Below are positions 2,651-59,147 of a stretch of DNA of 64,000 bases, in pieces (the stretch's first letter is position 1; every line of letters starts with the position of its first letter). The stretch is from Patescibacteria group bacterium (GTDB taxonomy: Bacteria; Patescibacteriota; Kazan-3B-28), in the NCBI GenBank assembly GCA_028717565.1, contig JAQUNP010000002.1, positions 26,054-90,053 on the forward strand, written 5' to 3'. The position numbers were made by a program, and so were the translations under genes. The notes beneath the pieces were generated by a model. The model searched no databases. It saw only the letters and a list, made by a program, of their open reading frames with translations, and was not told the origin of the DNA.

Positions 2651-2971
2651 ATGTCTGAAAAGCCGTCGGGAGTAGCAAATAATTTCTGGATGCTAGCCAT
2701 GATGATTCTGATCACTCTGTACGCGGTGTGTCTATGGCAGTGCTACTGGGATGTAATGGATCTCTACGAAAGGAATGCACGGCTTGAGGCCAATCTCGAC
2801 CAAGCACTTACTGTACAGGCGGCTATGCTGGAAAGGATCAAAACGCTGGAGGCCGCTGCCCCAAAGGCGTTGACTGCGTCTGAGCTGGGACAGGTTAGCT
2901 TTCGGATGGCTACGGATGAACCGACTCTGAAGGAAGAGATCGAGCGAGTGACTGGTTGGGTTTTGCCCTAA
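2651..2971 (+). CDS. Small membrane protein with coiled-coil tail, function unknown
   Basis: GGGAGG is 6 nt before the ATG at 2651. It has one hydrophobic helix (FWMLAMMILITLYAVCLW) and then a heptad-like region. The longer ORF-track start at 2537 would overlap tRNA-Thr and was not used. Confidence 0.55.
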   Translation: MSEKPSGVANNFWMLAMMILITLYAVCLWQCYWDVMDLYERNARLEANLDQALTVQAAMLERIKTLEAAAPKALTASELGQVSFRMATDEPTLKEEIERVTGWVLP

Positions 2972-2989
2972 GGCAGTGCAAGCATGTAC

Positions 2990-3018
2990 GCTCCTCCGCT
3001 CATGCCGAGCGGAGGAGC
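2990..3018 (+). terminator. Hairpin after the 2651 ORF
   Basis: GCTCCTCCGCT catgccg AGCGGAGGAGC, an 11-bp perfect stem with no U-run. Confidence 0.4.
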
Positions 3019-3023
3019 CCTCC

Positions 3024-3052
3024 TTGACACAAAAACAGGCCTCGTACATAAT
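3024..3052 (+). promoter_or_regulatory. Sigma70-like promoter upstream of the rplK leader
   Basis: TTGACA (3024-3029), 17-nt spacer, CATAAT (3047-3052). The first ATG of the leader lies 10 nt downstream. Confidence 0.6.
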
Positions 3053-3061
3053 ATCCCTTGT

Positions 3062-3208
3062 TATGCCCTGTAGAGAATTTTAGAATGATTATCTAGATTT
3101 TACTTTTTCAGGGACATAGCCATGTTAGTGAAAGGTTGTTATCAGTTTGGAATTGTCGTGAATTTACGATAATCAGGTAAAATTTTCTAAAATCTTCTAC
3201 AGGGTATG
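3062..3208 (+). promoter_or_regulatory. Structured leader element copy 1 (mini-ORF MPCREF plus long hairpin) ending in the rplK start codon
   Basis: The 5' arm TATGCCCTGTAGAGAATTTTAGAA pairs with the 3' arm TTCTAAAATCTTCTACAGGGTATG (about 24 bp, one A.C mismatch). The inner stem is TGATTATC/GATAATCA. The same termini occur at 21115-21254 and 24328-24468. Confidence 0.7.
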
Positions 3209-3634
3209 GCAAAGAAAGTTAGGACAGTTGTGAAGCTTCAGTGCGAAGCTGGTAAAGCTAACCCGGCTCCGCCGGTAGGTACGGCTTTGGGTCCCCATGG
3301 TATTCAAATCATGGATTTTTGTAACCAGTTTAATGATCGGACCAAAGAGCTAATGGGTAGTGTGATCCCAGCCGTCATTACTATTTACGAAGACAGATCT
3401 TTTGATTTTATTTTGAAGCAACCTCCAGCTGCTGAACTGATTAAGAAGGCAGCAGGGCTTTCCAAAGGTTCAGGTGTGCCGAATAAGGAGAAAGTGGGTA
3501 AGTTGACCAGGGCACAGATAAAAGAAATTGCTGAAAAAAAGATGCCCGATTTAAATGCTAATGATATTGAAGCCGCGATGAAAATTATTGAGGGTACGGC
3601 TAAGAATATGGGCGTGGAAATAAACGGGAAATAA
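3206..3634 (+). CDS. rplK: 50S ribosomal protein L11
   Basis: [29 protein letters not shown] is the canonical L11 N-terminus; 142 aa. Confidence 0.95.
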
Positions 3635-6932: not shown

Positions 6933-7502
6933 ATGGCAGACGAACAAACTAACCAATCCCAAGGGGAGAACGAAGAGCAGCAAGCCCCTGAAGCTCAAGA
7001 AGAGCAACAGGTTGAAGTGGCTGCAGAAGCTCCGGCTGAGGAAACCAAGGCCGAAGAGGCGCCAGCGCCTGTAGCAGAGAAGCCGGTAGAAGAGAAAAAA
7101 GAAGTAGACACCTCTAAGTTATCCGAGACCGCTAATAAGGTTTTGGACATGGTGTCTGAAATGACTGTTTTGGAACTGGCCGAGCTTGTCAAAGTAATGG
7201 AAGACAAGTTTGGTGTGAGCGCCGCTCCGGCCGCTGTGGCTGTAGCTGGCGGAGCTGCAGCGGGTGGTGGGGACGCGCAAGCTGAAGAAAAGGATAGCTA
7301 CAATATCAATTTGGCTGACGCTGGCGGCAACAAGATTGCTGTCATCAAGGCCGTTCGCGAGATTACAGATTTGGGTCTGAAGGAGGCCAAGGATTTGGTA
7401 GAAGCAGCTCCGAAGATTGTGAGGGAAGGTGTAAAGAAAGAAGAAGCCGAAGAAATGAAGAAGAAGCTCGAAGAGGCCGGTGCTAAAGTAGAATTGGTCT
7501 AA
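6933..7502 (+). CDS. rplL: 50S ribosomal protein L7/L12 with a ~65-aa acidic N-terminal extension
   Basis: The C-terminal 125 aa are canonical ([19 protein letters not shown] ... [23 protein letters not shown]). AGAGG SD precedes the ATG at 6933. The extension is E/Q/A/P-rich. Confidence 0.9.
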
Positions 7503-7547: not shown

Positions 7548-7664
7548 CACAAAATGTTAACCAAAAACCAAAATCGTCCTTTCTGGATTTAACCGCAAAC
7601 TCGCCCAAGGGCTCAGACATGCTCATCCAGATCGGACGATTTTGCTATTGGTGGACACATTTTG
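7548..7664. repeat. R1a: short, divergent member of the R1 long-hairpin family
   Basis: Nested stems CAAAATGT/ACATTTTG, CAAAATCGTCC/GGACGATTTTG and TCTGGAT/ATCCAGA. The core is GCAAACTC-[GCCCaaGGGC]-TCAGACATGC, as in R1b and R1c. Confidence 0.6.
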
Positions 7665-9665: not shown

Positions 9666-12600
9666 ATGGATCCTGACCGGATCACCGATCAAGAGACGCC
9701 TACGTCTCAAGTAACACCTGAAGAGGTGGGTGTTGGCGAACCCCGTGAAAACGGTGGCGCTGAGGTAGAAGTCAGGGGGGGTAATGGTGGCGGACCGGAA
9801 GTAAAAACCAATGGTGAGCCCGAAGCTCGAACTATTGTAGTGGAGAATGTCGGGCCGGAGATTGCTAAAATCAAACAGGAGCTAGGGGAAGAAGGAGAAC
9901 CTCCGTCTGTAATGGAGCGGAGAAATATGCTCAAACTGATTATCGGTGTGGAGCAGGTAGATGAGACAAAAATCGAGCAAGCTGGACTGACTGAAAAGTG
10001 GCAACTGATACAAGAAGTGCTGGATTTAGTGACCGACAAGTATGAAACAAGAGAAAAGTTGAGGTTGCATACAAAGGTTTTTGACGTGGCGGTATCGAGA
10101 TTGCGGGACATTGTTGACCAATTCAGTCCTTGGACTCTGGCACACTCCACGCGCTTAACGGGCGAGGCGTACAAACTGGCTAAAGACATCTGGGAGTTTT
10201 CGGCTATATTTATGAAAAATCTTCGAGATGCCGGTTTGATTCATGATGTTGGTAAGGCGGCTACTCCGTTTCAGATTCTAGAAAAGCCGAGCCGGATGAA
10301 TGATGCCGAGTTCGAGCGAATGAAAAAACATCCAGATGATGGGCGTAAAATGGCGGCGCCGGTTTGTCGGCGCAATAGTAAAATTTGTGCTGGTTTTGGT
10401 CACCATGAAAAAGTTGACGGGAGTGGCTATCCCGATGGGCTGAAGGGCACGGAGATACCATTTATTGCTAGGTTGTTAGCATATACAGATGTTTTGGATG
10501 CAGTCAGTAGTGAAAGGCCGTACAAGCTACCTTTCTTACCAGAGTTTTCTCAGCAAGCGGTAATGGAGCCAGGCGTTGGAGTACACTTCGATCCGTATAT
10601 TGCAGCTGGTTCGAGGGATAGATATGAACGGAGAGGTTTTACATTTAAGCAGTACTTTAGACCAGAACGAACTGAACGACAGATTGAGAATGAGCTGGTT
10701 AACGTCAGCCCATTTACTCAATTTAAAAATGAGCGGGCTCGACAAAAAGATGTCAGAAGTATCGCCAAGATATTTAGGCCCCATGTTTCTAATAATGGTT
10801 CTAAGCGTAGTGCGGAAGAGATTATTGCCCGGCTGGATATGGCAGAACTGGTGGCGCTGAAAGCAAAGCTTGATCAGGAACAAACTGTACTGGGAGACGA
10901 GGAAGGGCGATTACAGGATATCTCTGTGGATGCTCTGATGATTTTGGTGAAGGCGATTGATGCACGTTACAGTATGCAAACCTTTAAGGATGAGAACCAA
11001 ACTGGCGAGGCAAAGGAACAGGACGGACAGGACGGCGAGTCAGATGAGGAGAGGATAGTTGGTCAGGCACGTACGGAGAATGTGATCCGCTATGCTTGGA
11101 TGTTGTTGCAGCACATGAAAAATCGTGGATACGAAGGCGCTGAAGATATAGATGAAAGACAGGTGATCATGGCGGCGATGTTCTGTGATGTTGGTGTGTT
11201 GGGTGTTGACCCTAAGAAAATTAGTTACCCCGGTTTTTTGGGTGTAACTGATATGAAAGCGATTCAAGCGATGCCTGCAATCGGTAATGCGCTGCTTGAG
11301 CCATTTATTAAGGACCCCGAGATTGCGCCTTGGTTTAATGGCGCGGAAGCTGGTGCGACGCAGGCCAACCTCTGGGCCGATGGTCGGCACGGTTACGGTA
11401 TCACGACTAATGGTGCTAAGGAGCCATCTTTACTTGGGAAGATAGTGGCTGTTGCTTACAAATATACTGCACTTAGATCAGACAATCCACGACGCGATCC
11501 ATTTGATCACAAGGCGGCGCTAGAAACGATGCTGCGCGGCACAGCCAAGGGCGAATTTGATGCAGATGTGATGCAGTATTTTGTAGAGGTAGATGCTTTG
11601 GATATGCTGCGAGTGTATCAGCCCCGGCCAGAAGTGGTGGGAGATATCAAGGAGGAGTTTAAGGGAAATGAAGTAAAAGTCGTGCCTGGCTCACAGCTGG
11701 CTTTGGAGTTAGCTAGCAAGGCAGGGGAGATTTACCGGGCCACGTCATCTGATGAAAAATTAAAATTGTGTATGGAGGGGGCGAAATTGTGTCAAGAACA
11801 TAGTTTGTACACTCACATGGAGAGATTTTTGGAGATGGAAGAACGGGAATTCATCCAACGCCATGACTTGAACGGCATTGAATCCTGCTATCAATATGAT
11901 TTAGTTCAGTCAGAAGCTCAGCGGTGGAGCTTTGTGACAAACATGCTGGAATTAATAAGAGACCCCCGCATACCAGCTGAGACCGCCTACCGGAATATGC
12001 GCAAGGCAGTCGGCTCGGCAGAGGGATTGATGAAGGACTTTGCGGAAATGGGACAGGTATTAAGCGATGAAGTGGCCAATAAGTTTAGGGATGCTCTGAT
12101 AGAGGGTAACCAAATTGTTTATAATCTGCTGATGCAAAAGTATCGGGAAAGTATGCTGGCCAAGGACGCTGAACTGGCGCTCAATACGTTTGAGATGCTC
12201 ACGATTGTAGGTGCCGAACTGGGTCTAAGTGGTGAGGGGGATCAAAGACAGATAGAGATGCTGCAGGCAGAGGTTAACGATAAGATGGTGATTGATGATA
12301 TTGAAAATGATATTAAAGAAGCTCAACTGGCGATAGCTGAACAAAACCCTTGGGACGCGGAGCACTACATTGCAGTGGCGAATAAAAAACTAGAAGACAA
12401 AGTCACTTGTCCTCAATCGCAAGAGGTGCGGGATGCCTTAGTTGAAAACATTCAGGCAGTCAAGAAGGGGATGTGTGCATGTGGTTGTGAGACGGGCTTG
12501 GCTAGAATGAGGGAGAACAGAGACCAGGGCTTAGTGTTTAGTAACCTAGAGCTGCAGAAGAAGGTTTTAGAATGGGGTGGCTCGGCTGAAGAGACACAAG

Positions 12601-21114: not shown

Positions 21115-21254
21115 TATGCCCCGTAGAGAATTTTAGAATGATTGCTGAAGATGTACTCTTAGACGGGCATGGGGGTGTAGAGACGGAGGTTTTTATAGCT
21201 GTGCATGAGAATGACAATCAAATAAAATTTTTCTAAAATCTTCTACAGGGTATG
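21115..21254 (+). promoter_or_regulatory. Structured leader element copy 2 (mini-ORF MPRREF) ending in the hisS start codon
   Basis: Same termini as copy 1 (TATGCCCCGTAGAGAATTTTAGAA ... TTCTAAAATCTTCTACAGGGTATG). Inner stem TGATTG/CAATCA. TATAAT at 21099-21104. Confidence 0.7.
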
Positions 21255-23966: not shown

Positions 23967-24296
23967 GTGGAGGATAGTATTTTTTTCAAATTTGCGACTG
24001 GGGAATTAAGACCGGATACGGTCAGATATGAGGACGAGGAGCTGCTGGCGTTTGATGATATTCATCCAGACGCTCCTATCCATATCTTGGTCATCCCGAA
24101 AAAGCCGATTCAAAGTGTGGCCGACATGACACAGGAGGACGCTGCAATAGTGGGCAAGATGATATTGCTAACTAAGAAATTAGCGGAGGAGATGGGGGTA
24201 GCCGAATCTGGCTATAAGGTGACTTTTAACGTCAGGGAGGGGGGAGGGCAGATTATTCCCTATCTACACCTGCATTTGCTGGCAAATAAACCTTGA
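23967..24296 (+). CDS. HIT-family nucleotide hydrolase
   Basis: GTG start. The C-terminus carries the HLHLHLL histidine triad; 109 aa. Confidence 0.85.
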   Translation: MEDSIFFKFATGELRPDTVRYEDEELLAFDDIHPDAPIHILVIPKKPIQSVADMTQEDAAIVGKMILLTKKLAEEMGVAESGYKVTFNVREGGGQIIPYLHLHLLANKP

Positions 24297-24321
24297 TTAA
24301 TACATAAGAATCCGCTATAGT
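24293..24321 (+). promoter_or_regulatory. Promoter upstream of the rpsU leader
   Basis: TTGATT-17-TATAGT. The first ATG of the leader is 7 nt downstream (near-leaderless geometry). Confidence 0.6.
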
Positions 24322-24327
24322 TCTACC

Positions 24328-24468
24328 TATGCCCTGTAGAGAATTTTAGAATAATCAGCTGGAATGCCCCGCTTTTATTGCTAAATACTTTACGAACGGG
24401 CTGCAATGGGCCGGTGGGTTTGACGGCTGATCACAAATAACATTTTCTAAAATCTTCTAAAGGGTATG
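24328..24468 (+). promoter_or_regulatory. Structured leader element copy 3 (mini-ORF MPCREF) ending in the rpsU start codon
   Basis: TATGCCCTGTAGAGAATTTTAGAA ... TTCTAAAATCTTCTAAAGGGTATG. Inner stem ATCAGC/GCTGAT. Confidence 0.7.
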
Positions 24469-33005: not shown

Positions 33006-33602
33006 ATGAGTCAGTATCAAGAACAAAGAGTGGGAGTGTTAGTGGACGTGTCGAATATGTACTATTCGGCTAAGGTGATGTATCAAAAAAAGGTCAACTT
33101 CAAAGCCATTTTAGAAACGGTGGTGGGAGACAGAAGTTTGATCAGGGCGATCGCTTATGTGATTAGAGCCGATATTCCTGAGGAGGGCAGTTTTTTTGAG
33201 GCCTTGGAGCATATTGGCTTTGAGGTGAAGATGAAAGACCTGCAGATTTTTTATGGTGGCAATAAAAAGGGTGACTGGGACGTAGGGATTGCCATGGATG
33301 CTATAAAATTAGCGCCTAAGCTGGATGTGGTGGTGTTGGTTTCTGGTGATGGTGACTACGTGCCGCTAGTGCAATACCTGCAAAGCATTGGTCAGAAGGT
33401 AGAGTCCGTAGCTTTTGGCAGAAGTGCTTCTAGTAAGCTGATTGAGGCGACGGACAAGTTTATTGATCTGGATAAAGATACCAAGAAGTTTTTGATTTCT
33501 GATGGTCGTCGTACTACTACCACACGTCGTGCGTCAGCTAAGCCCAAGCCGAAAACTACAAGTCGGCCGATTCCGAGACAAGGTAAGGAGGATGCAAAGT
33601 AA
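33006..33602 (+). CDS. NYN/LabA-like domain protein with a basic tail
   Basis: VGVLVDVSNMYY...VVLVSGDGDYVPLV is typical of NYN (DUF88). The C-terminus is RRTTTTRRASAKPKPK. Confidence 0.7.
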   Translation: MSQYQEQRVGVLVDVSNMYYSAKVMYQKKVNFKAILETVVGDRSLIRAIAYVIRADIPEEGSFFEALEHIGFEVKMKDLQIFYGGNKKGDWDVGIAMDAIKLAPKLDVVVLVSGDGDYVPLVQYLQSIGQKVESVAFGRSASSKLIEATDKFIDLDKDTKKFLISDGRRTTTTRRASAKPKPKTTSRPIPRQGKEDAK

Positions 33603-44441: not shown

Positions 44442-45911
44442 ATGAAAGAATCTTTGAATCAGATTATCGGGTTTCGACTAGATAAGCTAAAAAAGCTGCG
44501 TGAAAAAGGTATCGATCCGTATCCAGCTAAATCATCTAGAAGTGCAGAGATGGCGGAGTTTTTGGATAAATTTGCGTCTTTCAAGAGAAGTAAAAAAACG
44601 GTGAGTTTGACGGGGCGTTTGATGAGCAAGCGTGAATTTGGGGGTTTGGCTTTCGGAGTTTTAAAAGATTTTTCAGGTGAAGTACAAGTAGTATTCAAAA
44701 AAGATTTGTTGAAAAATGCTTATGCCGATCTGGAACTGATTGACGTTGGTGATATTTTGCAGGTGTCGGGGCAAGCATTCGTGACTAAAAAGGGCGAGAA
44801 ATCGTGTTTGGTAAAAAAAATGACCTTGCTGGCCAAGTCCTTGCGCCCCCTACCGGAAAAGTGGCATGGGCTGACAGACCAGGAGACACGTTTCAGACAA
44901 AGGTATTTGGATATCTTGTTTAATGACGAGGTGAAGCGGCGTTTTATTTTGCGTCACCAGTTAGTGCAAGCCATCCGAAAGTTTTTGATTGGCCGAGGAT
45001 TTATCGAGGTGGATACACCAGCTCTCCAGCCCTTGCCGGGTGGAGCTTTGGCGACTCCGTTTAAAACTCACTACGAGGCACTAGATACAGACGTGTATTT
45101 ACGAATTGCACCAGAACTGTATTTGAAACGGCTCATGGTGGGTGGTTTTGAAAAGGTGTTTGAGTTTGCCAGAGTGTTTAGAAATGAGGGGGTTTCCACG
45201 CAACACCTGCAGGATTTCACTATGCTGGAGTTTTACCAAGCATATACTACGCACGAAGATTTGATGAGGATGACAGAGCTGATGCTGGGGCAGGTTATCA
45301 AGCAAGTGCTTGGAACTACTAAGGTAAAATTCGGAACCAAAGATATTAATTTTAAAACTCCCTGGCCGAAAAAGACCTTTAGAGAGTTGATTAAAAAAGA
45401 AACCGGCCTTGATATTGACCAGTATCCAACGGCGCAGGATCTGACGAAAGCGATTGGAGCCAAAAAGATTAAGCTGACCTTTAAGGGCAAAGCGGGACGA
45501 GGCAAACTGATTGACGAGTTATATAAGGAAACTGTGCGGCCAAAATTGGTAGATCCTGTATTTTTGGTTGACCATCCATTGGATCTCTCGCCACTGGCAA
45601 AGAAGAAAACGGACGATCCAACAAAAGTACAACGGTTTCAACTAGTCATAGCTGGAATGGAAGTGGTGAATGCTTTTAGTGAGCTCAACGATCCGATTGA
45701 TCAAAAAGAGCGCTTTATGGAGCAGGCCCGGCAGAAAAAAGCGGGGGATAAGGACGCTCACTCTATGGATGATGACTTTGTCAAAACCTTGGAATACGGT
45801 ATGCCGCCAACGGCTGGTTGGGGGATGGGCATTGAGCGGCTGTTGATGCTTTTGACTAATGCCGATTCGGCCAGAGAAGCTGTGCTGTTCCCATTTGTAA
45901 AAGATAAGTAG
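44442..45911 (+). CDS. lysS: Lysine--tRNA ligase (class II)
   Basis: FIEVDTP, FRNEG.S..H..DFTMLEFYQAY and GMPPTAGWGMGIERL. TGcTATAAT plus 6 nt precedes the ATG. Confidence 0.93.
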   Translation: MKESLNQIIGFRLDKLKKLREKGIDPYPAKSSRSAEMAEFLDKFASFKRSKKTVSLTGRLMSKREFGGLAFGVLKDFSGEVQVVFKKDLLKNAYADLELIDVGDILQVSGQAFVTKKGEKSCLVKKMTLLAKSLRPLPEKWHGLTDQETRFRQRYLDILFNDEVKRRFILRHQLVQAIRKFLIGRGFIEVDTPALQPLPGGALATPFKTHYEALDTDVYLRIAPELYLKRLMVGGFEKVFEFARVFRNEGVSTQHLQDFTMLEFYQAYTTHEDLMRMTELMLGQVIKQVLGTTKVKFGTKDINFKTPWPKKTFRELIKKETGLDIDQYPTAQDLTKAIGAKKIKLTFKGKAGRGKLIDELYKETVRPKLVDPVFLVDHPLDLSPLAKKKTDDPTKVQRFQLVIAGMEVVNAFSELNDPIDQKERFMEQARQKKAGDKDAHSMDDDFVKTLEYGMPPTAGWGMGIERLLMLLTNADSAREAVLFPFVKDK

Positions 45912-50429: not shown

Positions 50430-50548
50430 CGTGGCACTCTGGTGACGCAGAGGTTAATATCTGGATATTTTTGAATTAATTTTTAAGGGTATCAATTTAA
50501 GGATAGACACCTTCTCTTCACCGGAGTGCCACGTGGGAGCGCTCCCAC
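50430..50548 (+). other. ~104-nt hairpin plus a perfect 16-bp palindrome in the long leader of the PKD gene
   Basis: CGTGGCACTCTGGTGA (50430-45) pairs with TCACCGGAGTGCCACG (50518-33) around an AT-rich apex. GTGGGAGCGCTCCCAC lies at 50533-50548. A putative promoter TTGACA-17-TAAATT is at 50249-50277. Confidence 0.5.
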
Positions 50549-50675
50549 TGACCCAGCGGAGACGAAATATTTCAATCGTCAAAGTTGGTGCTGTCACCAG
50601 GTGTGATTGCAAACGCCTGGGTGGCGGAGGGCGAGAGCCCGATGCCACGCCTTGCTATGCACCAGGAGGTGCAAG

Positions 50676-52301
50676 ATGAAAGGTAATACGCTTAGGGCTC
50701 TCGCCCTGACATTTCTGTTGGTGCTGCTGCAGGTTTCCTGCAGCGGTGGCGGAGCCGTTGAGGTGACGCCGGAAGTTGACATCGAAGTCAACCCAACTCC
50801 CAGCATGACGGCTGGGGAACGGCTGAACGAGATGGGTATTTCCGGTGTTGACGCCCTCTACGAGGAGTACGCCGACGGTGTCTACCTGCGCGTCGAGTGG
50901 CTGGATCCCAATCCAGTAATCGCCGACGGCGGCAAGGTTGACTTTGGCGCCATCCAGGTCTTTGCGAAGCCCTGGATGATCAGTGAGGGGGAGTTCGTGG
51001 AGACTCCAATCACCTCCTACGAGGAAGTGGAGTTCTCGGCAACTTACGGAAACCCCACGGCTCTAGATACGCTGCTGTGGCAGTTGTTCTGGCACGAGAT
51101 CGCTGGACCAACTGACGTCACCGGCACCGTGAAGGTGCTGCCAGAAGAGTTTGTCAAGATTTGGGATCAGCTTAATGGTGATCCCTTGGCAACGTTCGTG
51201 GGTGACTACGCCGATGTGTCGGTTAGTATAACTGACGGGCTCGTCTCAATCGACGATGGCGGTATTGAGCTGTGGCTCGGTGCTATCGGAGCGGGTCTGT
51301 TGGTGGCGGCTACTGGGGGAACGGCCACTCCGGTGTGCTGTCCCGGATGGTGTCCACAGCTTTCAAAGCCGTGGACGGTATCACCGACAAACAGCCTGCC
51401 GACGGTGGCCTTGACGGCTGCGCCGATGAATGGGATGGCCCCCCTGATGGTACATTGTACTGCCGTTGCAACGGATGCAGATGGAACGATTATGGGATAC
51501 GAATGGGACGTTGACGACGGCGAAGGGTTTGCTCCTGGTGTCGCCAACTACAACATTACTTTTCCAGAATCGGGTACATACACTGTGACAGTACGTGTTA
51601 CTGATGACGACGGGGCGACTGCAACGGATGCGGTGGAGATCGTCGTCACGCAGAATGAGCCCCCAGTCAACGAAGCGCCGACGGCAGCTCTGACGGTGAG
51701 TCCGACCACTGGAGTCGAAAGTGTCGAGGTGACCCTCGATGCCTCCGGCAGTACGGACAGCGATGGTACGATCGATCAGTACGAGTGGGATTTCGATGGT
51801 GATGGTACATACGACAAGACCACTACCGCGAGTACTACCAGTCATACCTACGGGGTCGGCACTCATACGGCGAAGGTACGGGTAACCGACGACGATGGAG
51901 CTACCGGCACGGCGGCTGCAAGTGAGGCAGTTGTCGTGAGTGAGTCAACAGGTCCGACATGGGGCGACGATCCCTATGATCGCGATCTGCTGCTCATATC
52001 CGTCACTCCTAACGGAGTTGACGCTGGCGAGGTTATTTCGCTCTCGGCCAGTGGAGACGAGGCCCAGTGGGTACTGGTCGATATCTTCTACGATGGGACT
52101 CATCGCGAAAGCGGTATCGACGGCAAGTACTTCACCTTCTCCTTCTCCAGCACAACGCCTGGTCTGGTGACTGCCAGCGGCTACATTGACGCTGCCGGCA
52201 TGGCCGCGGGTACATACAACGTCGGCTTGGCCGTAACAATCCAGACGGCGCCAACCCCGGATGTGATCGGGATCGATATCCCGGTCACCATCGTCAACTA
52301 G
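50676..52301 (+). CDS. Putative lipoprotein with two PKD-like domains (GC-rich)
   Basis: GGAGG SD. Signal MKGNTLRALALTFLLVLLQVSC (Cys after the hydrophobic core). PKD-like repeats ...YEWDVDDGEGF...GTYTVTVRVTDDDGATAT and ...YEWDFDGDGTYD...GTHTAKVRVTDDDGATGT. 60-nt samples are 36/60 and 38/60 GC. Confidence 0.75.
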   Translation: MKGNTLRALALTFLLVLLQVSCSGGGAVEVTPEVDIEVNPTPSMTAGERLNEMGISGVDALYEEYADGVYLRVEWLDPNPVIADGGKVDFGAIQVFAKPWMISEGEFVETPITSYEEVEFSATYGNPTALDTLLWQLFWHEIAGPTDVTGTVKVLPEEFVKIWDQLNGDPLATFVGDYADVSVSITDGLVSIDDGGIELWLGAIGAGLLVAATGGTATPVCCPGWCPQLSKPWTVSPTNSLPTVALTAAPMNGMAPLMVHCTAVATDADGTIMGYEWDVDDGEGFAPGVANYNITFPESGTYTVTVRVTDDDGATATDAVEIVVTQNEPPVNEAPTAALTVSPTTGVESVEVTLDASGSTDSDGTIDQYEWDFDGDGTYDKTTTASTTSHTYGVGTHTAKVRVTDDDGATGTAAASEAVVVSESTGPTWGDDPYDRDLLLISVTPNGVDAGEVISLSASGDEAQWVLVDIFYDGTHRESGIDGKYFTFSFSSTTPGLVTASGYIDAAGMAAGTYNVGLAVTIQTAPTPDVIGIDIPVTIVN

Positions 52302-52309
52302 CAATTTTT

Positions 52310-52412
52310 GACAGGAGCCCCGAAGCTTAAAACACTTCGGGAGCTCCTGTCCCCAACCTTGGTCACCAATTATCGCTCCCCCCAGGTGATAATCTGATGA
52401 CCAAGGTTGGGG
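52310..52412 (+). terminator. Two consecutive long hairpins after the PKD gene
   Basis: GACAGGAGCCCCGAAG ..9.. CTTCGGGAGCTCCTGTC, then CCCCAACCTTGGTCA ..32.. TGACCAAGGTTGGGG (15 bp perfect). There is no U-run. Confidence 0.45.
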
Positions 52413-52445
52413 ACACACACATATATAACTCAAGGGGTAAAGATT

Positions 52446-58966: not shown

Positions 58967-59147
58967 TCACTTTTTTAGAAAAAGTGACATAAAAATCCTC
59001 CGCGGTCGAAAATAGCTGTTCATCTCAAATAACAGCTGCTTTATGCTTATCACCAAACTCGCTACGCTCAAACATGGGCACGCTTAAATGCAGCTGTTAT
59101 TTGGATTCAAGACGCTATTTTCTCCGACGCTCGACTAGGAAGGAGAT
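58967..59147. repeat. R1-like composite hairpin repeat (copy D), related to 19140-19320
   Basis: GTCACTTTTTT aga AAAAAGTGAC hairpin, then CAAATAACAGCTGC (59026-39) paired with GCAGCTGTTATTTG (59090-103). The core-like segment is CCAAACTC gctacgc TCAAACATGG. Confidence 0.5.

Follow-up and report, generated by a model that had tools for sequence, protein, structure and literature searches.

A non-coding element of ~132-139 bp stands in exactly three copies, directly before rplK, hisS and rpsU, in a 64,000-nucleotide stretch (hereafter the window) of contig JAQUNP010000002.1 from a Patescibacteria bacterium of the Kazan-3B-28 lineage. Our comparative analyses indicate that this element is mobile DNA of the Kazan-lineage Patescibacteria, of the miniature inverted-repeat transposable element (MITE) type, and that it has probably been kept as a 5' hairpin leader. 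It is small and non-coding, it is bounded by terminal inverted repeats, its target-site duplication is apparent when occupied sites are compared with empty ones, and its copies are dispersed over non-homologous loci. The surviving copies sit almost only on the transcription starts or start codons of leaderless genes, where the duplication made by the element itself rebuilds the start, as ATG or as G + TG. The essential genes for L11/L1, S21, S20, HisRS and a LysRS-like synthetase tolerate a 140-nt hairpin before the start, and therefore some route of processing or initiation must exist. The element may thus offer a handle on translation initiation in Patescibacteria that are poor in Shine-Dalgarno (SD) sequences and rich in leaderless genes.

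Copies of the element and their insertion sites

The copy before rplK, on the forward strand like the other two, displays the general arrangement. A native sigma-70-type promoter, TTGACA-17-CATAAT (3024-3052), matches the consensus at 11 of 12 positions, and its -10 box ends 10 nt before the first ATG. This ATG (3063-3065), which marks the original promoter-proximal start position, belongs to the left TATG copy (3062-3065) of a 4-bp target-site duplication and is followed by the left terminal inverted repeat, CCCTGTAGAGAATTTTAGAA (3066-3085). The 5' strand of an inner stem, TGATTATC (3086-3093), directly continues the outer stem, and the 3' strand, GATAATCA (3168-3175), lies beyond a variable core (3094-3167) for which further folding is predicted. 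An A/T-rich asymmetric bulge, GGTAAAATT (3176-3184), present on the 3' side only and found in all copies, precedes the right terminal inverted repeat, TTCTAAAATCTTCTACAGGG (3185-3204), which is separated from the left arm by 99 nt and contains a TAAAAT 12 nt before the rplK ATG. The right TATG copy (3205-3208) supplies that ATG (3206-3208), from which rplK (3206-3634; ribosomal protein L11, PF03946 and PF00298), followed by rplA, is read; the product of its open reading frame (ORF), 142 aa long, has an NCBI L11 protein as a 100% match. Immediately before the -35 box of the rplK promoter stands a GC-rich hairpin of 12 perfect base pairs, GCTCCTCCGCTC-ATGCC-GAGCGGAGGAGC (2990-3019); no T-run follows it, and the upstream transcription unit probably ends here.

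An earlier note on this DNA, made from the sequence alone, had described the promoter and hairpin before rplK and the recurrence of the same termini before hisS and rpsU. Both observations were borne out: the promoter, the arms and the TATG repeats could all be placed, and the window holds six arm matches with 0 expected (none in 100 shuffles). In copy 2 (21115-21254), TATG repeats enclose the element (21119-21250), the ATG at 21252 starts hisS, and the left arm carries an uncompensated C at 21122 that is common to the copy at the same site in L152. In copy 3 (24328-24468), the element (24332-24464) is likewise enclosed by TATG and the ATG at 24466 starts rpsU (S21 by Pfam), while the native rpsU promoter, TTGATT-17-TATAGT (24293-24321, forward strand), ends 7 nt short of the first ATG. 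No fourth copy was detected in the window with a covariance model of 12 copies.

Related sequences present the same loci with and without the element. In L143, whose RplK is 89-90% identical to the window protein, an element occupies the same place before rplK. In L144, the site reads TTGACA-17-CATAAT-atctcttgtt-ATG, with the same promoter and no element, and the rplK site is empty in six relatives (L144, L145, L146, L147, L148 and L149, the last from Kazan bacterium RIFCSPHIGHO2_01_FULL_44_14). The empty rplK sites follow the pattern TTGAC[AT]-17-(-10 box), 6-10 nt, ATG, with a single ...tTATG/ATG in L144, L147 and L148; judged from these sequences, rplK is ancestrally leaderless or nearly so. 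The rpsU site, occupied in the window, is empty and leaderless in L150 and L157, and the hisS site is empty in L156 and L157. Because the orthologous rplK, rpsU and hisS sites are empty, the TATG repeat represents a target-site duplication, which supports the suggestion of a MITE with TATG flanks that the earlier note had listed among its readings. The duplication is always 4 bp long and begins with T, being TATG in most cases, TGGA in two and TTGA in one, and the TGGA and TTGA flanks vary on both sides together. L143 and L144 are sister genomes (rplK DNA 85% identical, versus 77-78% to the window); with the window and L143 occupied and L144 empty, the history of this site therefore requires that L144 lost the element exactly or that it was gained twice independently.

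The duplication also accounts for two features that the earlier note had pointed out. The two start codons, said to face each other across the helix, do pair, but only through the G.U of the directly repeated TATG. The mini-ORF ATG CCC TGT AGA GAA TTT TAG (MPCREF*; 3063-3083, forward strand) exists because the duplicated ATG reads into the left arm; it is present in copy 1, but it becomes MPRREF in copy 2 and MPSREF in L050 and is not conserved as a peptide. TGGA-flanked copies have ORFs of 25-30 codons and an inverted copy, in L125a, has one of 2 codons. Such accidental read-ins from the duplicated ATG are the only ORFs in the element copies, which have no coding capacity.

Further copies were collected by a metagenome scan with the right arm, fuzzy arm searches, the covariance model and the inspection of loci reached through HisS homologues, giving 15 copies in at least seven genomes or contigs and 13 insertion events; contig Ga0315281_10000527 holds three copies in 21 kb. 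Copies with TATG flanks stand at the start of rpsT (L050, equivalent to L124/L132/L138), at the start of a membrane-protein gene in L122, L125b and L125a (the last inverted relative to its gene), at the hisS start in L150, and on the transcription-start TATG of a leadered rpsU in L127. Also at the hisS start, the L152 copy has CATG and TATG flanks and the L151 copy has decayed ends. TGGA flanks enclose L133b, where a gene for a class II tRNA synthetase of the D/K/N type (read as LysRS) begins, and L140, at the start of a PGM/PMM gene, whereas the TTGA-flanked copy, L133a, is located within the -35 box of a TTGACA-16-TATAAT promoter that precedes a gene read as greA. The assignments to S20, class II synthetase and PGM/PMM come from Pfam, and "LysRS" and "greA" are readings of the translations. 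In both TGGA cases, the original ATGGA... start was split, and the gene now begins with a GTG formed by the last G of the element and TG.

The insertion place coincides with the start codon in ~11 of the 13 events, the exceptions being L127 and L133a. In L127, rpsU starts 97 nt beyond the element, and the empty counterpart of this site in L156 reads TTGCCT-17-TATTTT-ctacc-TATG-ccc..., ~100 nt, ATG; the target here was the transcription-start region of an mRNA with a leader, not a start codon. The position relative to the promoter is more uniform: a -10-like box precedes the insertion by 5-10 nt in 12 of 13 events, and the orientation is the same in 12 of 13. The window has ~35 intergenic TATG/CATA sites on a rough gene map and roughly 8-10 leaderless-looking TATG starts, and all three occupied sites are leaderless starts. 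A plain MITE at arbitrary positions, the outcome that the earlier note had set beforehand as its refutation, is not what was found, as nearly all copies follow a -10 box at 5-10 nt, mostly at start codons and in a single orientation.

Elements at the hisS start have interiors of three unrelated kinds (window/L152, L150 and L151, the junction being slightly shifted in L151); therefore, the same spot was hit repeatedly, which suggests that the transcription-start region is targeted. With 90% of the genome coding, survivorship may be an alternative to such targeting. At L151 (10001-11368), the public HisS call (P0123, 455 aa) starts at a TTG within the decayed copy and so gains 30 spurious residues, as the protein truly begins with the ATG at the right end of the element; gene callers can thus be misled by the element.

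Two of these loci contain additional structured sequences. The ~97-nt rpsU 5' untranslated region (UTR) of L127 (468-567, reverse strand) and L156 (12630-12718) contains a conserved hairpin, GGATTCCCGC-4-GCGGGAATGAC, a candidate S21 leader structure that the leaderless rpsU genes of the window, L150 and L157 lack. The region downstream of the L127 copy was also considered as an RNA gene; it gave no match in Rfam and is this rpsU 5' UTR. In L133 (~2960-3060, reverse strand), the sequence TTGACA-16-TATAAT, 6 nt, ATGCCC, the hairpin CCCGCTT-GTGAT-AAGCGGG and a T-run precede the gene read as greA; this hairpin and T-run lie downstream of the L133a copy and may serve the gene as a leader or attenuator.

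Other searches added little. A scan of genome contigs with a 16-nt degenerate arm pattern was swamped by chance matches, the L050 copy being the sole real one, and the candidates L064 (Berkelbacteria) and L003 (Peribacteria) were dismissed as chance matches. Only a phage coding sequence matched the left arm in viral contigs, and blastn of the element against plasmids gave no match. The covariance model detected no extra copies in ~290 kb, but diverged relatives can escape it, as the decayed L151 copy did.

Structure and conservation of the element

Measured from CCC to GGG, the element is 102-148 bp long across copies. Its 20-nt ends are complementary at 18 of 20 positions and conserved between copies, and the arm core of 15-16 nt, TAGAGAATTTTAGAA, is identical in 13 of 14 intact copies. 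The two imperfect pairs in the arms, a fixed G.U and a fixed A.C, correspond to a GA/AG swap between the two ends; the A.C mismatch had been reported as conserved, and it indeed occurs, with the neighbouring G.U, in every intact copy. Two variable, covarying positions adjoin the CCC...GGG tips in intact copies. The bulge on the 3' side measures 9-13 nt across intact copies, with the 5' side of the helix continuous into the inner stem, and it is often -10-like, a hexamer being recognizable in ~7 of 12 copies by our own reading of the bulge sequences, which is not a tool count.

RNA folding of the window copies predicted free energies of -43 to -48 kcal/mol (z = -4.1 to -6.7). In the model-based alignment, 95% of cells pair and nine pairs are changed on both sides (0 of 500 shuffles reach the observed score). 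The compensatory changes pointed out earlier in the inner stem are part of this pattern, with 6 of 7 pairs changed on both sides. The same pattern is seen between the window and L143 copies at rplK, which differ by four compensatory changes and six one-sided changes that keep the pair; the inner stem of the L143 copy has a compensatory A-T to G-C change. Covariation within an inverted repeat cannot separate RNA from DNA as the level at which pairing matters.

The interiors are far more variable. The earlier note had called them unrelated, which holds for rpsU, whose interior is at background identity, but not entirely for rplK and hisS, whose interiors are 62% identical against a background of 52% (background maximum 58%). 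The core of the window rplK copy is 69% identical to that of the L143 copy at the same site. In two same-site pairs (window/L143 at rplK and window/L152 at hisS, both members of the latter carrying the odd C.A mismatch in the arms), the ends show 2 differences in 80 positions and the interiors 71 in 207 (p = 8e-10). If the same-site pairs are orthologous, the ends are under purifying selection in place, and selection for transposability alone would be an insufficient source of their conservation.

Expression across the element and alternative explanations

Both hexamers of the rplK promoter are identical (12/12) in the window, in the occupied L143 and in the empty L144, although the window and L143 differ over most of the 17-nt spacer, and all four occupied hisS sites retain their -10 box. 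A consensus scan found no full internal promoter conserved in the three window copies. Because the hexamers are conserved in occupied sites, the native promoter is probably still used, and the element would then be transcribed as a 5'-terminal hairpin. The genome looks poor in SD sequences and rich in leaderless genes, an SD-like core being present within 22 nt of 19 of 65 rough gene starts in the window. The earlier statement that neither ATG of the element copies has an SD sequence is correct, but the accompanying remark that many genes have GGAGG was overstated. A -10-like box also lies 3-9 nt upstream of several starts in the window, for example at 44442 (LysRS; TATAAT+6), 15790, 28589, 42312 and 7719.

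The comparisons thus show that insertion takes place almost always 5-10 nt after the -10 box, about at the transcription start; with many genes leaderless, this is usually the start codon, and the duplication supplies the gene with a new ATG, or with a GTG in TGGA sites. For expression, the observations suggest the following scheme. The mRNA would begin approximately at the left TATG and carry a 5'-terminal hairpin of ~24 + 8 bp, with the real AUG at the hairpin foot. Access to this AUG might be gained by (a) RNase III cutting, (b) an outward -10 box in the arm or (c) opening of the stem by a ribosome, ranked in this order. We favor the first, which was also among the readings of the earlier note and in which the long stem would be cut by RNase III as may be expected from the Correia elements of Neisseria, which, according to PMC2649163 and PMC10969869, create promoters and are both bound by RNase III and cleaved at the terminal repeats. 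Bacteria of the candidate phyla radiation have kept RNase III and RNase J (PMC12641178). Cutting would leave a short, unstructured leader without an SD sequence, like that of most genes of this genome, and an uncut hairpin could protect the 5' end. The hairpin and the end sequences would be kept by selection, with an essential gene now dependent on them, and the element would be removable by exact excision only. Selfish DNA could in this way become hard to lose, exact excision alone being viable, and one structured 5' end could spread across a regulon.

A bolder version of this scheme, which we regard as an outside chance, combines transposition directed to the melted DNA of RNA-polymerase open complexes with a 5' hairpin that is an obligatory cis-acting device for formerly leaderless essential genes. 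Targeting of open complexes would explain the three or more hits at the same hisS nucleotide and the near-exclusive location at transcription starts. The obligatory device could consist of a leaderless mini-ORF that opens the stem or of sequence-specific recognition of the invariant 15-nt arm core. If this version is true, rplK-rplA, rpsU, rpsT, hisS and lysS would be under one shared post-transcriptional control.

Several points weigh against a mobile element maintained as a hairpin leader. Cutting by RNase III and the use of the second AUG afterwards are steps that we infer. The inverted copy in L125a has a decayed gene-distal arm and an intact gene-proximal arm, a pattern more in line with a promoter in the arm than with a hairpin that is required, and the decayed L151 copy before hisS indicates that the ends can erode. 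The window and L143 copies before rplK may be independent insertions rather than orthologues, and the argument from conserved ends for selection in place may be weaker if same-site copies derive independently from related master copies. No transposase with these ends was found in ~330 kb of Kazan sequence or among 20 Pfam-scanned ORFs of the window, and the scan of viral contigs likewise yielded no autonomous partner. The sense strand folds better in nine copies, equally well in four and worse in one, but shuffled controls traced this greater stability to base composition, with similar z-scores on both strands, and the asymmetry was set aside as a test of RNA-level selection.

The evidence from L125a supports an explanation in which the RNA hairpin is irrelevant to expression of the gene: the TAAAAT in each end would serve as an outward -10 box from which transcription would start a few nt before the duplicated codon, giving a leaderless or near-leaderless mRNA. 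All intact copies have an unaltered TAAAAT in the gene-proximal arm, 12 nt from the ATG (10 nt from the GTG), near the native spacings of 6-12 nt; the hisS copy even has a full ATGACA-17-TAAAAT promoter; and Correia elements and other MITEs supply promoters (PMC2649163, PMC10969869). However, no -35 box is conserved, copies 1 and 3 lack an internal promoter in the consensus scan, and the native upstream hexamers remain perfectly conserved in occupied sites despite the diverged spacer. A promoter in the arm would also leave unexplained the conservation of the distal arm and the inner stem, as well as the orientation bias, since both ends carry the same TAAAAT. We consider this explanation unlikely. 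Related candidates were rejected: a conserved internal sigma-70 promoter exists in the hisS copy only, and a -10 box in the bulge fits only ~7 of 12 copies by our own reading. Translation-coupled opening, the main reading of the earlier note, keeps the hairpin and would have a 70S ribosome on the 5'-terminal AUG translate into the left arm, unzip the stem and free the second AUG for re-initiation or fresh initiation, in a shunt-like manner. Every copy has a promoter-proximal AUG from which an ORF runs into the left arm, with the real start across the helix and no SD sequence at either AUG, and in L140 the ORF, as read from the sequence, stops at a right-arm TAA; the 18 nt from there to the GTG would suit termination-reinitiation. 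The length of the ORF nevertheless varies (2, 6 or 25-30 codons) and its peptide follows trivially from the arm sequence, L127 has no AUG-to-AUG geometry with its gene start 97 nt beyond the element, and leaderless initiation should be hampered by the location of the first AUG within the stem. A hop of the ribosome, leaving at the UUU that precedes the mini-ORF stop and landing on a UUU close to the right arm, proved to be out of frame when checked by hand and was rejected. Such coupling appears rather doubtful to us.

The remaining explanations concern the origin of the element rather than its expression. The consistent sense-strand position before housekeeping genes and the covariation would suit a vertically inherited, immobile regulatory leader, either riboswitch-like or of the ribosomal-protein or tRNA-synthetase type, but the clean empty sites in close relatives refute it, and the same element precedes unrelated genes, is absent from most orthologues, is flanked by 4-bp direct repeats that vary with the site and matches nothing in Rfam; we give this origin practically no credence. 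Conserved inverted ends around variable interiors directly upstream of genes, together with the opposite orientation of the L125a copy, recall an inverton whose interior is flipped by a site-specific recombinase. In L125a, however, the whole element is inverted, including its asymmetric ends, and not the interior alone; no locus was seen in both orientations, no recombinase gene was found nearby in the window, the target genes are essential housekeeping genes and the interiors have no conserved promoter, which makes an inverton very improbable. A palindrome-associated derivative of the IS200/IS605 type, moving as single-stranded DNA and inserting 3' of a fixed tetranucleotide without a true duplication, would be in keeping with the hairpin formed by the whole element, the TATG to the left of most copies and an insertion point at which RNA polymerase melts DNA. 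Such an origin is improbable, as the flanks change on both sides together (TGGA/TGGA and TTGA/TTGA), as in a duplication, the ends are true terminal inverted repeats and not subterminal hairpins, and no TnpA gene was seen. A MITE with a 4-bp duplication, kept as a 5' hairpin leader, thus remains our preferred explanation.

Comparison with known repeats and other features of the window

The element had not been recognized as a described leader class, and this was upheld: at the Rfam gathering score, only tRNAs pass in the window, and the element matches no family either at this score or at the E-value threshold, its sole hits being to plant miRNA-precursor hairpins far below threshold, at 30 bits against a cut-off of 140 bits. 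The closest parallel is provided by the Correia elements (CREE/NEMIS) of Neisseria, which are likewise ~100-155-bp non-coding MITEs with ~26-bp inverted ends, mostly located just upstream of genes, and which are co-transcribed, their paired ends forming the substrate of RNase III (PMC2649163, PMC10969869); the corresponding stem of the Kazan element is modelled at ~24 bp. The two show no sequence similarity (Kazan ends, CCCTGTAGAGAATTTTAGAA), and no recognizable site for integration host factor, a Correia feature, is present in the Kazan element. Correia elements duplicate TA, whereas the Kazan element duplicates 4 bp. The former are scattered over hundreds of intergenic sites, in contrast to an element that occupies the transcription starts or start codons of leaderless genes and regenerates the latter. 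By analogy, the Kazan element is thus best viewed as working like a Correia-type MITE without being a member of that family.

Other small repeats share some of these properties. ERIC/IRU, RUP and BOX are also transcribed imperfect palindromes whose RNA structure affects mRNA processing or stability (PMC10969869, PMC3049150). Unlike the Kazan element, they are mainly 3' or inter-cistronic, have no defined position relative to promoters and do not duplicate a start codon. Rickettsia palindromic elements (RPEs) resemble the Kazan element as small palindromic mobile elements that are tolerated in essential genes and whose insertion preserves function. However, RPEs are inserted in frame and translated, while the Kazan element stays outside the ORF, which is left intact through the duplicated start codon. 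RPEs are among the repeats listed in PMC10969869. Our literature search found no description of a MITE at leaderless starts or start codons.

Two further likenesses concern the hairpin itself. The predicted Kazan leader shares its place at the very 5' end of the mRNA with stabilizer hairpins such as the 5' stem-loop of Escherichia coli ompA, and the order lower stem, asymmetric internal loop and upper stem with RNase III-processed leaders such as the R1.1-type sites of phage T7; those are fixed parts of single genes, whereas the Kazan hairpin is delivered to many promoters by a transposable element. In the shunt of the cauliflower mosaic virus 35S RNA and the bypass of phage T4 gene 60, a short ORF likewise stops where a stable hairpin begins, and the real start follows just beyond the hairpin. 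This likeness is purely geometric, since the viral shunt belongs to eukaryotic scanning and gene 60 to an in-frame hop, and the Kazan element has no in-frame pair of take-off and landing codons.

Regarding the source of transposition, the IS1380 family produces 4-5-bp duplications and has ends beginning with CC, and ISEcp1 drives the expression of downstream genes. This family is a candidate parent, as a lead only, and neither an IS1380-type transposase nor a long element with these ends was found in the Kazan sequence scanned. In Kazan bacterium RIFCSPHIGHO2_01_FULL_44_14 (L156), an IS110-family transposase gene (PF02371; 10872-11906) lies between an HIT gene and rpsU; it was rejected as the mobilizing enzyme, having no link to the element ends. 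After this gene, three ~65-nt hairpin repeats with arms GGGCGAGACG...CGTCTCGCCC (12120-12580) constitute a second, distinct repeat family at the locus of the window rpsU copy.

The window also contains unrelated long-range inverted repeats, all intergenic and outside this family, at 7564-7649, 50430-50533, 50628-50707, 52347-52416 and 59025-59104. One of them lies upstream of tgt (7719), where L147 has a different hairpin (7183-7279), and another, with 21-nt arms that are 95% complementary, overlaps a TTG start at 52407. Upstream of the rplK region, an ORF without a Pfam match (2537-2971) overlaps a tRNA-Thr gene (2492-2566), and a gene for an NYN-domain protein, a predicted ribonuclease (33006-33602), is located directly upstream of an ORF of 985 aa.

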